This document shows, piece by piece, positions 4,105 through 12,714 of a DNA stretch of 32,000 bases. The notes below the pieces were generated by a model. That model was not told where the DNA came from. It did not search any database and saw only the letters and a program-made list of their open reading frames with translations. The stretch is from Candidatus Saccharimonadota bacterium (GTDB lineage Bacteria; Patescibacteriota; Microgenomatia; UBA1406; GWC2-37-13). The position numbers were made by a program, and so were the translations under genes. Where the stretch lies: the NCBI GenBank assembly GCA_016700135.1, contig CP065004.1, positions 1-32,000 on the forward strand, read 5' to 3'. Every line of letters starts with the position of its first letter. Position 1 is the stretch's first letter.

Positions 4105-5562
4105 CTACACCATCTGATTCGGAATTTCTACGATTTCCCGTGTTGACTCATTCAGCAGCACAGGTACAGGCAACAACTCTTTCTGTTGTACCAGTTTTGA
4201 AAATACTGTATTGTTGAGAATCAAATTCAAAAAGTTATAGTTCACTCCCCGATATCCGGTCATTGCTTTCTCATCATTAAGGACAGCTTGCGGGACAGCG
4301 GTTACTACAAACAATACATGAGGCTTCTCAGAATTATTAGCATGCAGTACTGCGTGCTGAATTTCTGCTTGGTCCAGTGCATCCTGTTCCGTTGACGGAC
4401 TTGCCTTCAGTGTCTGGTGTCCGGGATCAAGCTGGCCGACATGTATACCGTCAAACGATATGCTTCCGTACTTCTCACCGTGTGTCGCAAGCGGATGGTG
4501 AGGATGCCCCTCATTCATATAAAATCCGAGTAAATACTGATTCGCTAAATTCCTTGCTGCTGTATAGTAAAAGGCACGAACCTGATTATCCGTAAGCAAG
4601 TTCAGATTGGAATTTCTTATATACTTCTGCAGCTCATCAATAAACGGTTTATACTCCATGAGTGTTGATGAAATATGATAATTCATATCCTCAAACGGTA
4701 TAATTGATTCAGGCATGACGAATGATTCCTTAAATAGGCCTATCTTTGAGTATTTTTTTCCGTACAGATCCTGAATGTACGGACCGAATGACGGGAAAAG
4801 CCGTTGTGCAATATCAACGGTACTGAGCGGAGTTTCTTCATCATTGCCCATAAATGTCAGTCCGAGAGTATCAGTGTCGCTTAATCCCAACACCGTAACT
4901 TTCTTCATGGTGGGAAGTCTCAATTCTTTTCTTACAGCGTTAAATGAATCCCGAATTACCGCCTTCCGTTCCTGCAGTAGTTTGATTCCCGTTTTGACCA
5001 GATTTGCATCCGCCGGCAATGTGCCGTTGTTTTCCTGCATGATTAATCGTTTCAGCGCAGCACAGCCATGATCAAGTGGGGCTGATCTTGAAGTATGAAT
5101 CTTCATGAGTTCAAATATCTCACCTTTCTGCTTTGCTACTGACAAAATGGCCGCACGCAATCTTCCCGATGCAAGATGTTTTTTTCCGTTTCTGTAGATC
5201 AAAGTCGGTATTCCTGCAGATATTGACCAACGGCTGAAAACCTTTCCGTCCTGAATGACCCGGGATTCCCGACCGTCAATACATGCAATTTTCCCCGCTC
5301 TTACGTTCGGGAACAAATTTTTTGCCAATTGAGTAAAAAGCTGGAATTCCGGTGATAAATATTTCTTTGTAATAAACTCATGTCTGCCCAGGTATGAAGA
5401 AACCCTTTCAATATTCTCTTGGGAAAGCGACGATTTTGAAGAAAAGAACTCTTTGCAATAGGAACTCAGGTATTTGGTCAGTGCCGATTTATGATGTCTG
5501 TTCAGTGCATAGCGATGTACGGAAGAATCGTTAGCGTGTTTTGTTTGATTTTTATGTTTCAT
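4105..5562 (-). CDS. Hypothetical protein with a beta-carbonic-anhydrase / CsoSCA-like (carboxysome shell CA-like) metal-site signature
   Basis: This is a 485-aa uninterrupted ORF. Motifs are C94-I-D96-G-R98, F109-S-R111-W-S-I-S-A-G117, H156-TSRSAPLDHG-C167-AA (His-x10-Cys), LGLSDTDTLGL (225-235) and HGEKYGSISFDG (361-372). From memory these resemble Halothiobacillus CsoSCA segments. The functional call is inference. Confidence 0.55.
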   Translation of the reverse strand: MKHKNQTKHANDSSVHRYALNRHHKSALTKYLSSYCKEFFSSKSSLSQENIERVSSYLGRHEFITKKYLSPEFQLFTQLAKNLFPNVRAGKIACIDGRESRVIQDGKVFSRWSISAGIPTLIYRNGKKHLASGRLRAAILSVAKQKGEIFELMKIHTSRSAPLDHGCAALKRLIMQENNGTLPADANLVKTGIKLLQERKAVIRDSFNAVRKELRLPTMKKVTVLGLSDTDTLGLTFMGNDEETPLSTVDIAQRLFPSFGPYIQDLYGKKYSKIGLFKESFVMPESIIPFEDMNYHISSTLMEYKPFIDELQKYIRNSNLNLLTDNQVRAFYYTAARNLANQYLLGFYMNEGHPHHPLATHGEKYGSISFDGIHVGQLDPGHQTLKASPSTEQDALDQAEIQHAVLHANNSEKPHVLFVVTAVPQAVLNDEKAMTGYRGVNYNFLNLILNNTVFSKLVQQKELLPVPVLLNESTREIVEIPNQMV

Positions 5563-5741
5563 ACCGGGAATTATACTCCGATTAAATAATAGTAGATAAT
5601 TTACTCCCGTACTAACCGGTTCTCAATATATCACCGATATGTATAACGCTTTTTTACTATAGCTCCTATATTTAGGCTATATTTCTCACTTTACATTAAC
5701 TTAAAAAGAAAATTAACAATATCAATTAATTCTATAAGATT

Positions 5742-6935
5742 ATGCCCCAAACTGAGTACTGTCATAACCTCGGACCTGAACAACTTTCTTCACCGGAATT
5801 GGTGACGTTGTCACCTGAGCGTCTTTACAAAGATAATCAATCGTATCCTGCATACAATGCACGGGGTGAATGGGACGACTTGCATGATAAAGGAGAACTT
5901 GATCTGATATGGGGATGTGCCGATGCCCGGCTTATTTTACCGGCAAATGCTTTTTATCTGCGATCTATCGCGGCAGCCGGTACCAGAGAGCCGTTTATCC
6001 CGCTTCTTCAGTTTTGCCGGGGAGTCACAGTTGTGGCTCATTACGATGGGGAAACTGCATTGCCCGGTGTCCGACCGAACGGGTGCGGCGGACAGGACGG
6101 GAAAGCCCATTTAGAAAAAAACGGAAATTATGATCCTCATATCCACAAAGGAGATATTACCGAATTCGTCCATAACTTAGTCACTCATGAGGACCCGGTA
6201 TTAAACGCTGTCGTAACCGCCTCACAAATTGCACGATACACTGATACTCCGACCACTGCATTGGCACAGGATCATCTCACGGGTAAAAACAAAGTACTTG
6301 CCGTTTACTCCGATCGGGGAAGATCAGTCAACAGCTGCATCCCGATCGAACAGATGATTAAAGCAATGACCCAAAATAGTTACGATCCCGAAGCGGTCTA
6401 CGCGGAAGGAGTTCCGGCACTTGATACGGGAAGTATTCCTGAGTTTATCGCTGAGTTGCTGGAAAGAAAGGAACGGGTCCTGAGAGGAATAAACAGTGCA
6501 ATACCGAACCTGCCTTCATATCAAAAAATTCAAAATCCGCACACATTGCTTATATCAACTGACCCACGACCAGCAAAAGTCAAATATCCGAACACATTCG
6601 GATTTCCGAATCAGGTTTTTGCACTGCGGGGACCGCGCATGTATCATCAGGACAGAGGTTTTCAGATCAATGAACCGGCAATAGCTGAAATCACACAACA
6701 GGCGCAGTATGCTGTAACTCATGCACTTGAACATGCACAACAGCCCGGTTCATCCTTTAGTACTCTGCGGAATATTTTTGTTGAAACCCGGCATCCGGAC
6801 TCCAGCGAAGCCATCATTCAGTCTTTGCTCTCAAAACCGTGGATGCAGGATTTTCTGGCTTTGCCGCATGCTCAAATCCTTTCCGGCATCATCGATCAGG
6901 GAATATTGCAGGATTGTCAGAAAATTACTGTATAA
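5742..6935 (+). CDS. Hypothetical protein, a divergent paralogue of the neighbouring gene, with a beta-CA-like C-x-D-x-R / His / Cys-Gly-Gly signature
   Basis: This is a 397-aa ORF. Motifs are C59-A-D61-A-R63, F71-Y-L-R74-S-I-A-A-A-G80 and H100-x14-C115-G-G. The order and spacing match the protein at 4105-5562. C-terminal helices also look related (QAQYAVTHALEHAQQP against QAEIQHAVLHANNSEKP). Confidence 0.5.
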   Translation: MPQTEYCHNLGPEQLSSPELVTLSPERLYKDNQSYPAYNARGEWDDLHDKGELDLIWGCADARLILPANAFYLRSIAAAGTREPFIPLLQFCRGVTVVAHYDGETALPGVRPNGCGGQDGKAHLEKNGNYDPHIHKGDITEFVHNLVTHEDPVLNAVVTASQIARYTDTPTTALAQDHLTGKNKVLAVYSDRGRSVNSCIPIEQMIKAMTQNSYDPEAVYAEGVPALDTGSIPEFIAELLERKERVLRGINSAIPNLPSYQKIQNPHTLLISTDPRPAKVKYPNTFGFPNQVFALRGPRMYHQDRGFQINEPAIAEITQQAQYAVTHALEHAQQPGSSFSTLRNIFVETRHPDSSEAIIQSLLSKPWMQDFLALPHAQILSGIIDQGILQDCQKITV

Positions 6936-11367: not shown

Positions 11368-12714
11368 ATGAGAAAAAAACTTCGTTCTTTTATCCCTTAC
11401 CTCACTCTGATTATATTCCTTACAATCCTTTCGCTTATTGCCCACTCATTTCTGGAGGAAGAAAGTCATTTCATGCATGAAGTCGATTTTCAGCTTTTCG
11501 TGATAGGATCGATGCTGTTTATCGGCTACTACATCAATAGGATTGCCCCGAAAACAATAATTCCGTCTTTTGTTTGGGCAATATTTGCCGGGATGGCATT
11601 ACAACCGTTTCTGTCATTTTTTACGGAAGATGTTGAAAGTCTGAAAATTCTTATGGAGGTATTCGGAGCCATTATTCTTTTTGCCGGCGGACTTGAGATA
11701 CCGTTTCGCAATTTTCAAAAATGGTTTATGCCGATTGCCGCTTTGTCGCTTCTTGGTGTAATCATCAGTTCAGTCGGTTTTGCTTTTGTCATGTATGGGT
11801 TTATGAACCTGATGGGCAATTTTACTCCTGCACTTATTCCGTCTATCCTTATCCTCAGTGCGGCACTTGCCTCTACTGATCCGACGGCCATTATCCCGAC
11901 GCTGAAATCACTGAAATTTACCAGACCCGAGCTCAAACAAATCGCCATTTCCGAGTCAGCACTTACCGATGTCAGCGGAAGTATCTTCACCAGATTCCTG
12001 CTTCTTGCTTTGATTTCCGCTCCTGCCATGCAGACGGGAATTATCCCGTATTTTGTCCCGCTGCTTCAGAAAAGCACCTATGATGCTTTTGCTCTGCAGA
12101 TTATCTCAGGAATTCTGGTCGGATATTTCGGCTTTACTCTTATCAAAAGGTTTTACTACGGGCAGGAAAAGTCTGAAGAAGCGGATCCTGCACTTGTTCT
12201 TGCCGTACCGATATTTACGTTTGTTTTAGGGAACATACTCGGCGGGGCAGGTTTCTTAGCCGCATTTGTCAGCGGACTTCTCACTGAGGTCATCGGGGGC
12301 ATCAAAAAAATCTCTCATTTTTATGAGAGTATTCTGAATCATTTGATAAAACCGTTTATCTTTATCATTCTCGGTGCACTCGTCCCTGTCTCAACTCTTA
12401 TTCAGCTTGCACCCGTCGGCCTTGCCGCCGGTTTTATTTTTATGTTTGTGCTGCGTCCTATTGTCGTCTTTATTTCCCTAGCTCCCTGGTGGTATCAGGG
12501 AGTGTTTCAGATCAAAGATCTCGTATTTTTAAGTTTCATCCGGGAGACGGGAATCATTGCGGCAATACTTCTTGTTATTGCAGCAACCTTTGACATTATT
12601 CAGTCAGATTTTGTCATTGCGATCGGTATGTGGATCATTCTTCTTACGCTTATTCTCGAGCCTCCTCTTACTCCTCTTATCGCGAGGAAAATCGGTGTTG
12701 CCAAAGAAGCGTAA
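11368..12714 (+). CDS. Cation:proton antiporter, CPA1 (NhaP-type Na+/H+ exchanger) family
   Basis: The 448-aa protein is hydrophobic throughout, with at least 10 predicted TM segments. The ALASTDPTAIIP motif is typical of Na_H_exchanger family proteins. Confidence 0.8.
   Translation: MRKKLRSFIPYLTLIIFLTILSLIAHSFLEEESHFMHEVDFQLFVIGSMLFIGYYINRIAPKTIIPSFVWAIFAGMALQPFLSFFTEDVESLKILMEVFGAIILFAGGLEIPFRNFQKWFMPIAALSLLGVIISSVGFAFVMYGFMNLMGNFTPALIPSILILSAALASTDPTAIIPTLKSLKFTRPELKQIAISESALTDVSGSIFTRFLLLALISAPAMQTGIIPYFVPLLQKSTYDAFALQIISGILVGYFGFTLIKRFYYGQEKSEEADPALVLAVPIFTFVLGNILGGAGFLAAFVSGLLTEVIGGIKKISHFYESILNHLIKPFIFIILGALVPVSTLIQLAPVGLAAGFIFMFVLRPIVVFISLAPWWYQGVFQIKDLVFLSFIRETGIIAAILLVIAATFDIIQSDFVIAIGMWIILLTLILEPPLTPLIARKIGVAKEA

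Follow-up and report, generated by a model that had tools for sequence, protein, structure and literature searches.

The 32,000-nt stretch of contig CP065004.1 analysed here (hereafter the window) carries, at positions 4105..5562 on the minus strand, a gene for a protein of 485 amino acids (aa) that we consider, with a probability of roughly two in three, to be a cytosolic, free-standing zinc carbonic anhydrase (CA) of the CsoSCA lineage of beta-CAs, the lineage that includes the carboxysome-shell enzyme. The open reading frame (ORF) begins with ATG, and the assignment of its product as a soluble CsoSCA-type beta-CA homologue draws on a structural model, a Foldseek search and hhalign comparisons. 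An identical protein, encoded on a 1.45-Mb contig, is on record as a hypothetical protein of Candidatus Roizmanbacteria (IPM65_00025). No hydrophobic segments were found in the 485-aa protein, which is therefore presumably soluble and cytoplasmic. An initial annotation, made from the letters of the window alone, had reported CsoSCA-type motifs in this gene, and our analysis confirms that observation. The interpretation then placed on it is partly supported: the fold and the active site were read correctly, but the conceptual novelty and the orphan status claimed for the protein were wrong.

Active-site residues and their conservation

Seven conserved residues of the family to which the 485-aa protein (the query) belongs, namely C94, D96, R98, H156, C167, H361 and E363, are the same seven as those listed for the CsoSCA active site, where they are C173, D175, R177, H242, C253, H397 and E399 (PMC9164163, Table 2; from Sawaya 2006). 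The Cys-x-Asp-x-Arg motif C94-I-D96-G-R98, with codons at 5269..5283 on the minus strand, supplies the putative first Zn ligand and the Asp-Arg dyad. The putative second and third ligands lie in H156-T-S-R-S-A-P-L-D-H165-G-C167, encoded at 5062..5097 (minus strand) and followed by A-A. Both assignments are based on invariance within the family and on alignment with CsoSCA. The codons of H361-G-E363, the counterparts of CsoSCA H397 and E399, occupy 4474..4482 (minus strand), at the start of the C-terminal pseudo-domain. The first two of these strings, as well as F109-S-R-W-S-I-S-A-G117, occur in the translation exactly where the initial annotation had placed them.

A word-indexed search returned 10 homologues of the query with identities of 54-100%, the named ones being from Roizmanbacteria and Woesebacteria. 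Residues C94, D96, R98, H156, H165 and C167 are all invariant in these 10 close homologues, although such invariance is little informative because the mean column identity is 73%. A profile built from the 10 sequences was searched exhaustively against 1.84 billion representatives with a cut-off of E ≤ 1e-3. At this cut-off the family comprises at least 111 clusters at 50% identity, 97 of which have E ≤ 1e-10, and most members are 460-540 aa long. Clusters that carry a name belong to Microgenomates/Candidate Phyla Radiation (CPR) bacteria, and the distant members come from Logan or JGI contigs. With 10 close homologues and this many clusters, the protein is not the orphan it had been called.

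In an alignment of 77 full-length members, whose identity to the query ranges from 19 to 74%, the mean column identity is only 24%; lengths in the family range from 459 to 574 aa, with a median of 490. The columns invariant in 77/77 sequences are exactly M1, C94, D96, R98, H156 and C167, so the proposed ligands and dyad residues are all conserved in the alignment of homologues. H361 and E363 are each kept in 76 of the 77 sequences, and G97 in 75. After residue 365 of the same alignment no column has Cys at 30% or more, and the two highest values for His are 47% (residue 398) and 32% (residue 415). The second half of the protein therefore lacks a metal site.

Two further signs that had been read from the sequence held only in part. 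The segment F109-G117 had been equated with the beta-CA strand F-V-x-R-x-A-G, but only the final Ala-Gly corresponds and the remainder is poorly conserved: R111 is found in 7/77 members, W112 in 47/77 and G117 in 50/77 (Ser or Ala otherwise). Likewise, the query does share with carboxysomal CsoSCA the His-x10-Cys spacing that had been taken as a sign of CsoSCA, but this spacing neither defines the family nor is diagnostic. Among the 77 members the His-to-Cys spacing is x9 in 30, x8 in 17, x10 in 16 and x2 in 4, the overall range being x2, x6-x11 and up to x21; the four members with x2 have the canonical H-x2-C spacing of beta-CAs. On this alignment, the x10 spacing of the query is best read as a coincidence rather than a signature.

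Relationship to CsoSCA and CsoSCA2

Free-standing relatives of the carboxysomal enzyme have been described before. The products of genes termed 'csoSCA alone' were named CsoSCA2 and reported to be "extremely widespread" (PMC9164163, Front Microbiol 2022), with hosts that include six CPR phyla (Falkow-, Magasanik-, Moran-, Pace-, Staskawicz- and Uhrbacteria; PMC9164163). CsoSCA2 proteins combine an active domain with a defunct one, retain every catalytic residue and have shortened loops and an N-terminal domain of 40 aa; they are defined by Pfam08936 membership, and their published hosts are mostly CPR phyla of the Parcubacteria type together with Proteobacteria (PMC9164163). Shorter 'non-cso' PF08936 members that lack the N-terminal hook were reported subsequently (PMC11086599, 2024), and CsoSCA2 has been taken as an outgroup (PMC12646314, 2025). 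The initial annotation had held that CsoSCA is normally confined to cso operons, which these reports of 2022 and 2024 contradict, and that no use of the CsoSCA fold in free-standing form had yet been described, whereas CsoSCA2 had already been reported, in CPR bacteria as well. In the literature searched, we found no paper that combines CsoSCA with the phrase 'Candidate Phyla Radiation' or that names Roizmanbacteria or Woesebacteria in this connection.

For the query family, homology to CsoSCA is detectable only by profile-profile and fold comparison. Searches with the single 485-aa sequence gave no significant match in Pfam, NCBIfam or, using phmmer, PDB, and none of the Pfam CsoSCA models was matched even at E ≤ 10. 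The profile of 10 close homologues found nothing relevant in PDB, and tblastn of the query against plasmids gave no match. At E ≤ 0.01 the Pfam CsoSCA models (PF20686 CsoSCA_cat, PF08936 and PF20687) matched 0 of 95 family members. CsoSCA_cat was the commonest weak match among members (4 of 77, best E 0.014), and the family consensus scored 14.1 bits against it (E 0.033; cut-off 21.5). Pro_CA, the Pfam model for canonical beta-CAs, matched neither the query nor any member. Searched against PDB, the 77-sequence profile returned five CsoSCA entries consecutively, at sub-threshold E-values of 0.09-0.6 and across the CxDxR...H...C region; in the match to 8thm, 'HtslsdpdhgC' pairs with HFSSLDPQHEGC. 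The top PDB sequence matches of the family profile were designed armadillo-repeat proteins, which we rejected as spurious, since they involve only a repeated 30-residue stretch at ~4-5 bits each.

We used hhalign to compare the family profile with three groups. Carboxysomal CsoSCA was represented by two sequences encoded in plasmid-borne cso operons of Thiodictyon and Nitrobacter hamburgensis. For CsoSCA2 we used five PF08936 sequences that are not carboxysomal (335-344 aa; PMC11086599, data file S1), three of which are from Moranbacteria, Patescibacteria or an uncultured bacterium. Of the three groups, CsoSCA2 gave the best relation (probability 96.0%, E 4e-9, score 72.0), over 315 columns that place query residues 53-469 on 12-345 of 350. 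The comparison with carboxysomal CsoSCA, for which the two sequences make a thin profile, gave a probability of 79% and E 1.6e-5 over 317 columns (query 84-472 on 175-508). A plant beta-CA, included as a control, gave 0.24% and E 0.25 over 14 columns.

All seven active-site residues are paired in the alignments with CsoSCA2 and with carboxysomal CsoSCA, and therefore the family belongs to the CsoSCA lineage. C94/D96/R98 align with C184/D186/R188 of the Thiodictyon enzyme, equivalent to C173/D175/R177 of H. neapolitanus, and H156/C167 align with Thiodictyon H252/C263, equivalent to H. neapolitanus H242/C253, with x10 spacing in both proteins. For H361/E363, the aligned motifs are 'GH-x-E' in CsoSCA and 'H-G-E-W' in CsoSCA2. 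The CsoSCA-type zinc site that had been proposed is therefore supported, as its three residues align with the three Zn ligands of the H. neapolitanus enzyme and are invariant in the family. Two other segments that had been thought to resemble CsoSCA do so as well: LGLSDTDTLGL (residues 225-235) contains a DTDT that aligns with CsoSCA DTxTD, and HGEKYGSISFDG (residues 361-372) holds the additional active-site His and Glu.

Structural comparison pointed in the same direction. An earlier AlphaFold model made from 10 sequences was mediocre (predicted local distance difference test, pLDDT, 66), and its best PDB matches, with E-values of 4e-8 to 8e-6, were the CsoSCA structures 2FGY, 9G4T and 8THM; the tandem beta-CA 1DDZ ranked next. 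The AlphaFold (AF2) model from the 77-sequence alignment reached a pLDDT of 94.5 and a predicted template-modelling (TM) score, pTM, of 0.93. When it was searched against PDB with Foldseek, as had been proposed at the outset, ranks 1-5 were all CsoSCA (8THM, 2FGY, 9G4T), matched over the full length with E-values from 3.2e-11 to 7.7e-10 (8THM_C 3.2e-11, 2FGY_A 1.6e-10, 9G4T 2.7e-10), TM scores of 0.51-0.57, 473-524 columns and 11-14% identity. Many ordinary beta-CAs came next in the list, beginning with CcaA 5SWC at E 2.6e-3, each matching a single domain and with TM scores to the query of 0.17-0.26.

In the model, the single chain is predicted to consist of a short helical N-terminus, a catalytic beta-CA domain and a degenerate C-terminal copy of that domain. 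The N-terminal region of ~85 aa has helices at residues 22-39, 48-68 and 71-81; by the secondary structure of the model, the helical region spans residues ~22-82 and is encoded at 5317..5499 (minus strand). In the catalytic domain, C94 ends strand 87-93, H156 ends strand 148-157 and C167 precedes helix 168-177. A large helical block follows at residues ~248-345. The C-terminal domain (residues ~361-485; 4108..4482, minus strand) is a beta-CA-like half without a zinc site, i.e. a defunct duplicate, and aligns with the C-terminal domain of CsoSCA, so that the query shows the fused pseudo-dimer arrangement in which a defunct domain comes after the active beta-CA domain.

The query resembles CsoSCA2 in the location of its gene outside carboxysome loci, in CPR bacteria among others, in having an active and a defunct domain and in possessing the seven active-site residues. 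In contrast to CsoSCA2, however, it is 485 aa long rather than 335-344 aa, a difference of ~145 residues, and has an extra N-terminal helix and, separating the catalytic sheet from the His-x-Glu motif, a far larger helical region. Whereas CsoSCA2 is recognised by Pfam08936, the query family falls below the thresholds of the Pfam CsoSCA models, and the query lacks the compact CsoSCA2 form as a whole (an N-terminal domain of ~40 aa, ~335-345 aa in length, Pfam08936). Unlike the published list of CsoSCA2 hosts, the genomes in which the family has been found so far are of the Microgenomates type, together with metagenome contigs.

With carboxysomal CsoSCA (CsoS3; 2FGY, 8THM, 9G4T; PF20686/PF08936/PF20687) the query shares a structural match over its full length, the three-part architecture, a one-to-one alignment of Zn ligands, Asp-Arg dyad and His/Glu, and the H-x10-C spacing within the local motif 'H-x-S-x-x-A-P-x-x-x-G-C-A-A'. 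It differs in that the gene has no adjacent cso operon and no adjacent shell, CsoS2 or RuBisCO genes. Its N-terminal region, with three helices, is also shorter than the ~144-aa N-terminal domain of the carboxysomal enzyme (PMC9164163), although longer than the ~40 aa of CsoSCA2, and the hhalign match to carboxysomal CsoSCA begins only with the catalytic domain, at query residue 84. Neither the disordered RuBisCO-binding tail nor the 'hook' of carboxysomal enzymes has an evident counterpart in the query, though no search was aimed at either.

Canonical beta-CAs form homodimers that carry two zinc sites, and their spacing is H-x2-C. The query has in common with this group (Pro_CA; CcaA 5SWC, pea 1EKJ, Can/CynT) the CxDxR motif, the His and Cys ligands, the alpha/beta catalytic fold and presumably the chemistry. 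Unlike them, it appears as a fused pseudo-dimer with one site and x10 spacing, matches them over one domain only and shows no profile similarity to them beyond CxDxR.

The distance between the query family and CsoSCA2 is, on these profiles, about the same as that between CsoSCA2 and carboxysomal CsoSCA, for which hhalign gave 96.7%, E 4.2e-10 and a score of 78.9 over 276 columns. On the hhalign scores, the family is therefore best filed as a third clade of the lineage, the other two being carboxysomal CsoSCA and the compact CsoSCA2. Its score with CsoSCA2 is slightly weaker than that between CsoSCA and CsoSCA2, which would make it a sister clade rather than one nested within CsoSCA2.

If the enzyme works by the established beta-CA and CsoSCA mechanism, from which we infer the following steps, Cys94, His156 and Cys167 would hold one Zn2+, with water or hydroxide as the fourth ligand. 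A salt bridge between Asp96 and Arg98 would hold the Asp away from the metal, so that the site is 'open' (type I), and would orient the zinc-bound hydroxide, which would attack CO2; the reverse reaction would dehydrate HCO3-. In ordinary beta-CAs the partner subunit completes the pocket, a part that His361 and Glu363 of the C-terminal pseudo-domain would play here.

Gene neighbourhoods and alternative explanations

Around the 485-aa gene, the window encodes rmlB/rmlD-like proteins, a 397-aa ORFan, ugd, an epimerase and a GT2/GtrA glycosyltransferase, as read via a 98-100% identical strain. Further on are genes for ArgRS, RecJ, RmuC, IF-2, NusA, RadA, EF-P, a class II aminoacyl-tRNA synthetase, DnaJ/DnaK/GrpE, HrcA and a beta-lactamase-family protein. 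The 32-kb window yielded neither a tRNA nor an Rfam match. It had been noted that no carboxysome genes lie nearby, and indeed shell, CsoS2 and RuBisCO genes were found neither in the window nor in the related loci we examined. Two genuine cso loci (L010 and L011) have the order csoS2-csoSCA-csoS4AB-csoS1, whereas none of the loci of the query family has such genes.

The surroundings of the family gene vary. A subset of seven family sequences located four loci in GTDB genomes. The flanking genes rmlD and ugd are found in the window and in loci L002 and L018. Loci L015 and L016 have the order QueA-TGT-small ORF-[family gene]-Fmt, L017 has TGT and then thymidine kinase upstream, and in L012 the family gene lies among aminotransferase and polysaccharide genes. 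These variable housekeeping contexts fit with a stand-alone cytosolic enzyme. Two metagenome-assembled genomes (MAGs) with family members, L014 (CAYVAJ010000008.1) and L016 (CAYOZH010000003.1), are labelled as uncultured Gammaproteobacteria bacterium; as the gene order QueA-TGT-x-[CA]-Fmt of L016 recurs in L015, a Microgenomates MAG, the L016 label may be wrong.

Membrane proteins adjoin the family gene in two other contexts. In four Woesebacteria/Roizmanbacteria-like loci with three different flanks (L001:5627-7863, L005:5760-7938, L007:5684-7843 and L009:325-2562) it is part of a trio in which it is preceded by a conserved, divergently oriented protein of 238-245 aa and a conserved polytopic membrane protein of 438-454 aa with ~10-12 hydrophobic segments. 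Neither partner has a relative in Pfam, NCBIfam or PDB, and the membrane protein may represent an uncharacterised transporter with a link to the CA. In the other context (L013:2-5940), the distant member P0018 lies directly downstream of, and on the same strand as, NuoH-like, HyfE-like, HyfF-like (PF00361) and fused NuoC/NuoD-like genes. This module resembles a group-4 hydrogenase or Mrp and is reminiscent of the DAB and Cup systems, but it is a single case. Both contexts are leads to a coupled system rather than evidence for one. The window itself has a gene for a 448-aa Na+/H+ exchanger family protein at 11368-12714 on the plus strand (PF00999, E 6e-39), ~6 kb from the CA gene; it has no detectable similarity to the ~440-aa membrane neighbours in the related loci.

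The protein might be an ordinary member of CsoSCA2, i.e. of the free-standing PF08936 proteins, in which case there would be nothing new about it. Its strongest hhalign relation, covering nearly all of CsoSCA2, is indeed to that group, the active-plus-defunct layout and the active-site residues are common to both, and CsoSCA2 is already on record in CPR bacteria including one Microgenomates lineage, Pacebacteria (PMC9164163). We nevertheless regard this as unlikely, because not one of the 95 members reaches the Pfam CsoSCA models at E ≤ 0.01 and the consensus stays short of the cut-off, the family is far longer than the 335-344 aa of CsoSCA2, and its hhalign relation to CsoSCA2 is slightly below that of carboxysomal CsoSCA to CsoSCA2. 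At the other extreme, the CA-like motifs could be a chance resemblance, or the protein a pseudoenzyme, with an unrelated non-catalytic role. The single sequence has no significant match in Pfam, NCBIfam or PDB, and the CsoSX proteins of Thiomicrospira show that CsoSCA-like proteins can lose catalysis (PMC9164163). Such pseudoenzymes, however, lack the residues in question (PMC9164163), whereas in the 77 sequences the five ligand and dyad residues are the sole invariants besides Met1, H361 and E363 are nearly so, and the fold and profile matches are CsoSCA-specific. The conservation, Foldseek and hhalign results thus largely refute this explanation, which we consider scarcely credible.

Other explanations accept the fold but alter the function. 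A beta-CA-fold hydrolase acting on carbonyl sulfide (COS), carbon disulfide (CS2) or cyanate-derived species, instead of a CO2 hydratase, would be compatible with the active site, as COS and CS2 hydrolases are established to use the same Cys-His-Cys/Asp-Arg site, and COS hydrolase structures are among the fold neighbours of non-cso CsoSCA (PMC11086599, Pulsford's Table S5); moreover, the extra helical elements predicted at residues ~248-345 could shape an access tunnel. However, the relatives closest in structure and in profile are bona fide CAs without exception, genes of sulfur metabolism adjoin the family gene at none of the loci examined, and the COS and CS2 hydrolases known so far have a single domain and belong to clade D of the beta-CAs rather than to the CsoSCA type, so we judge this function very improbable. 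No more probable is that the protein serves as the soluble or catalytic partner of a membrane system, either an energy-coupled ('vectorial') CA or an inorganic-carbon uptake module like DabA/DabB or CupA/NDH-1. The trio loci, with their 240-aa and ~440-aa partners, and the Hyf-like context of L013 favour such a role, but neither trio partner occurs in the window or in the closest relative, L002, other members lie among QueA/TGT/Fmt or polysaccharide genes, the trio genes are divergent or convergent rather than in one operon, and the Hyf-like context stands by itself. DabA (PF10070) is, like the query, a highly divergent beta-CA-like zinc protein, and the membrane proteins that adjoin some family members include, once, one of PF00361, the family to which DabB and NdhD/F belong. 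In contrast, the query gene has no DabB-type partner in the window, and DabA appeared among neither the sequence nor the fold matches; DabA is ~800-1000 aa long and, as far as is known, always paired with DabB. A bolder version, in which an ancient third clade would dock through its extra helices on membrane complexes (in some Microgenomates the ~440-aa and 240-aa partners and, once, a Hyf/Mbh-like complex with PF00361) to form a new energy- or transport-coupled CA of CPR bacteria, with the neighbouring 397-aa ORFan as a further divergent beta-CA-like protein, is a long shot.

Two points weigh against a free-standing carbonic anhydrase of the CsoSCA lineage as well: a TM score of ~0.55 at 11-14% identity is a large divergence from the solved enzymes, and the CsoSCA2 proteins themselves are reported as unstudied (PMC9164163). 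We still favour that explanation. The enzyme would then most likely equilibrate CO2 and bicarbonate in the cytoplasm of a fermentative, small-genome Microgenomates (CPR) bacterium, because shell genes and an evident RuBisCO-binding N-terminus are lacking and the neighbours are variable housekeeping genes. A nucleotide-salvage pathway with form II/III RuBisCO is known from CPR bacteria.

Significance and adjacent ORFans

CsoSCA was long treated as specific to carboxysomes until CsoSCA2 showed that it has free-standing relatives, and the query family would add a third deep branch. What is new here is a clade that is invisible to Pfam-based surveys, has ~145 residues more than CsoSCA2 and possesses an N-terminal region of ~85 aa with three helices and a large helical block at ~248-345. 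Domain models miss this branch, and its members are therefore left as 'hypothetical protein' in CPR genomes, which suggests that carbonic anhydrase inventories of small-genome bacteria are incomplete. The 77 sequences form a compact set for building a new hidden Markov model. The branch could also serve as an additional outgroup for the origin of the carboxysomal enzyme, bearing on how the N-terminal domain grew and on a loss of the second zinc site that would predate the split into three clades. We expect nothing unusual of the chemistry, and a free-standing CsoSCA fold has already been published, so the finding is useful without being a surprise to specialists.

The 485-aa gene is separated from the 397-aa ORFan gene by a divergent intergenic region of 179 bp (5563..5741, unstranded, from the ORF coordinates), in which the promoters of both genes presumably lie. 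The 397-aa protein, encoded at 5742-6935 on the plus strand, is a near-ORFan: its sole relative, 98% identical, is the copy in L018 and L019, near-identical strains that keep the 485-aa/397-aa gene pair. It has beta-CA-like motifs of its own (C59-A-D-A-R, LRSIAAAG and H100-x13-C114-G-G). In L002, the closest relative, where the CA is 75% identical and the rmlD/ugd synteny is kept, the slot of the 397-aa gene is occupied by a different ORFan of 258 aa (L002:7009-7785, minus strand) with the motifs GCMDRD and GHNHKCG. We considered these two neighbours as CA paralogues, but this is unproven: BLASTP, hmmsearch with the family profile, hhalign against the family and CsoSCA, and phmmer against PDB gave no significant similarity. 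After the 258-aa ORFan lies an IS66-family transposase (L002:5487-6935), and the slot adjoining the CA gene seems to turn over quickly.

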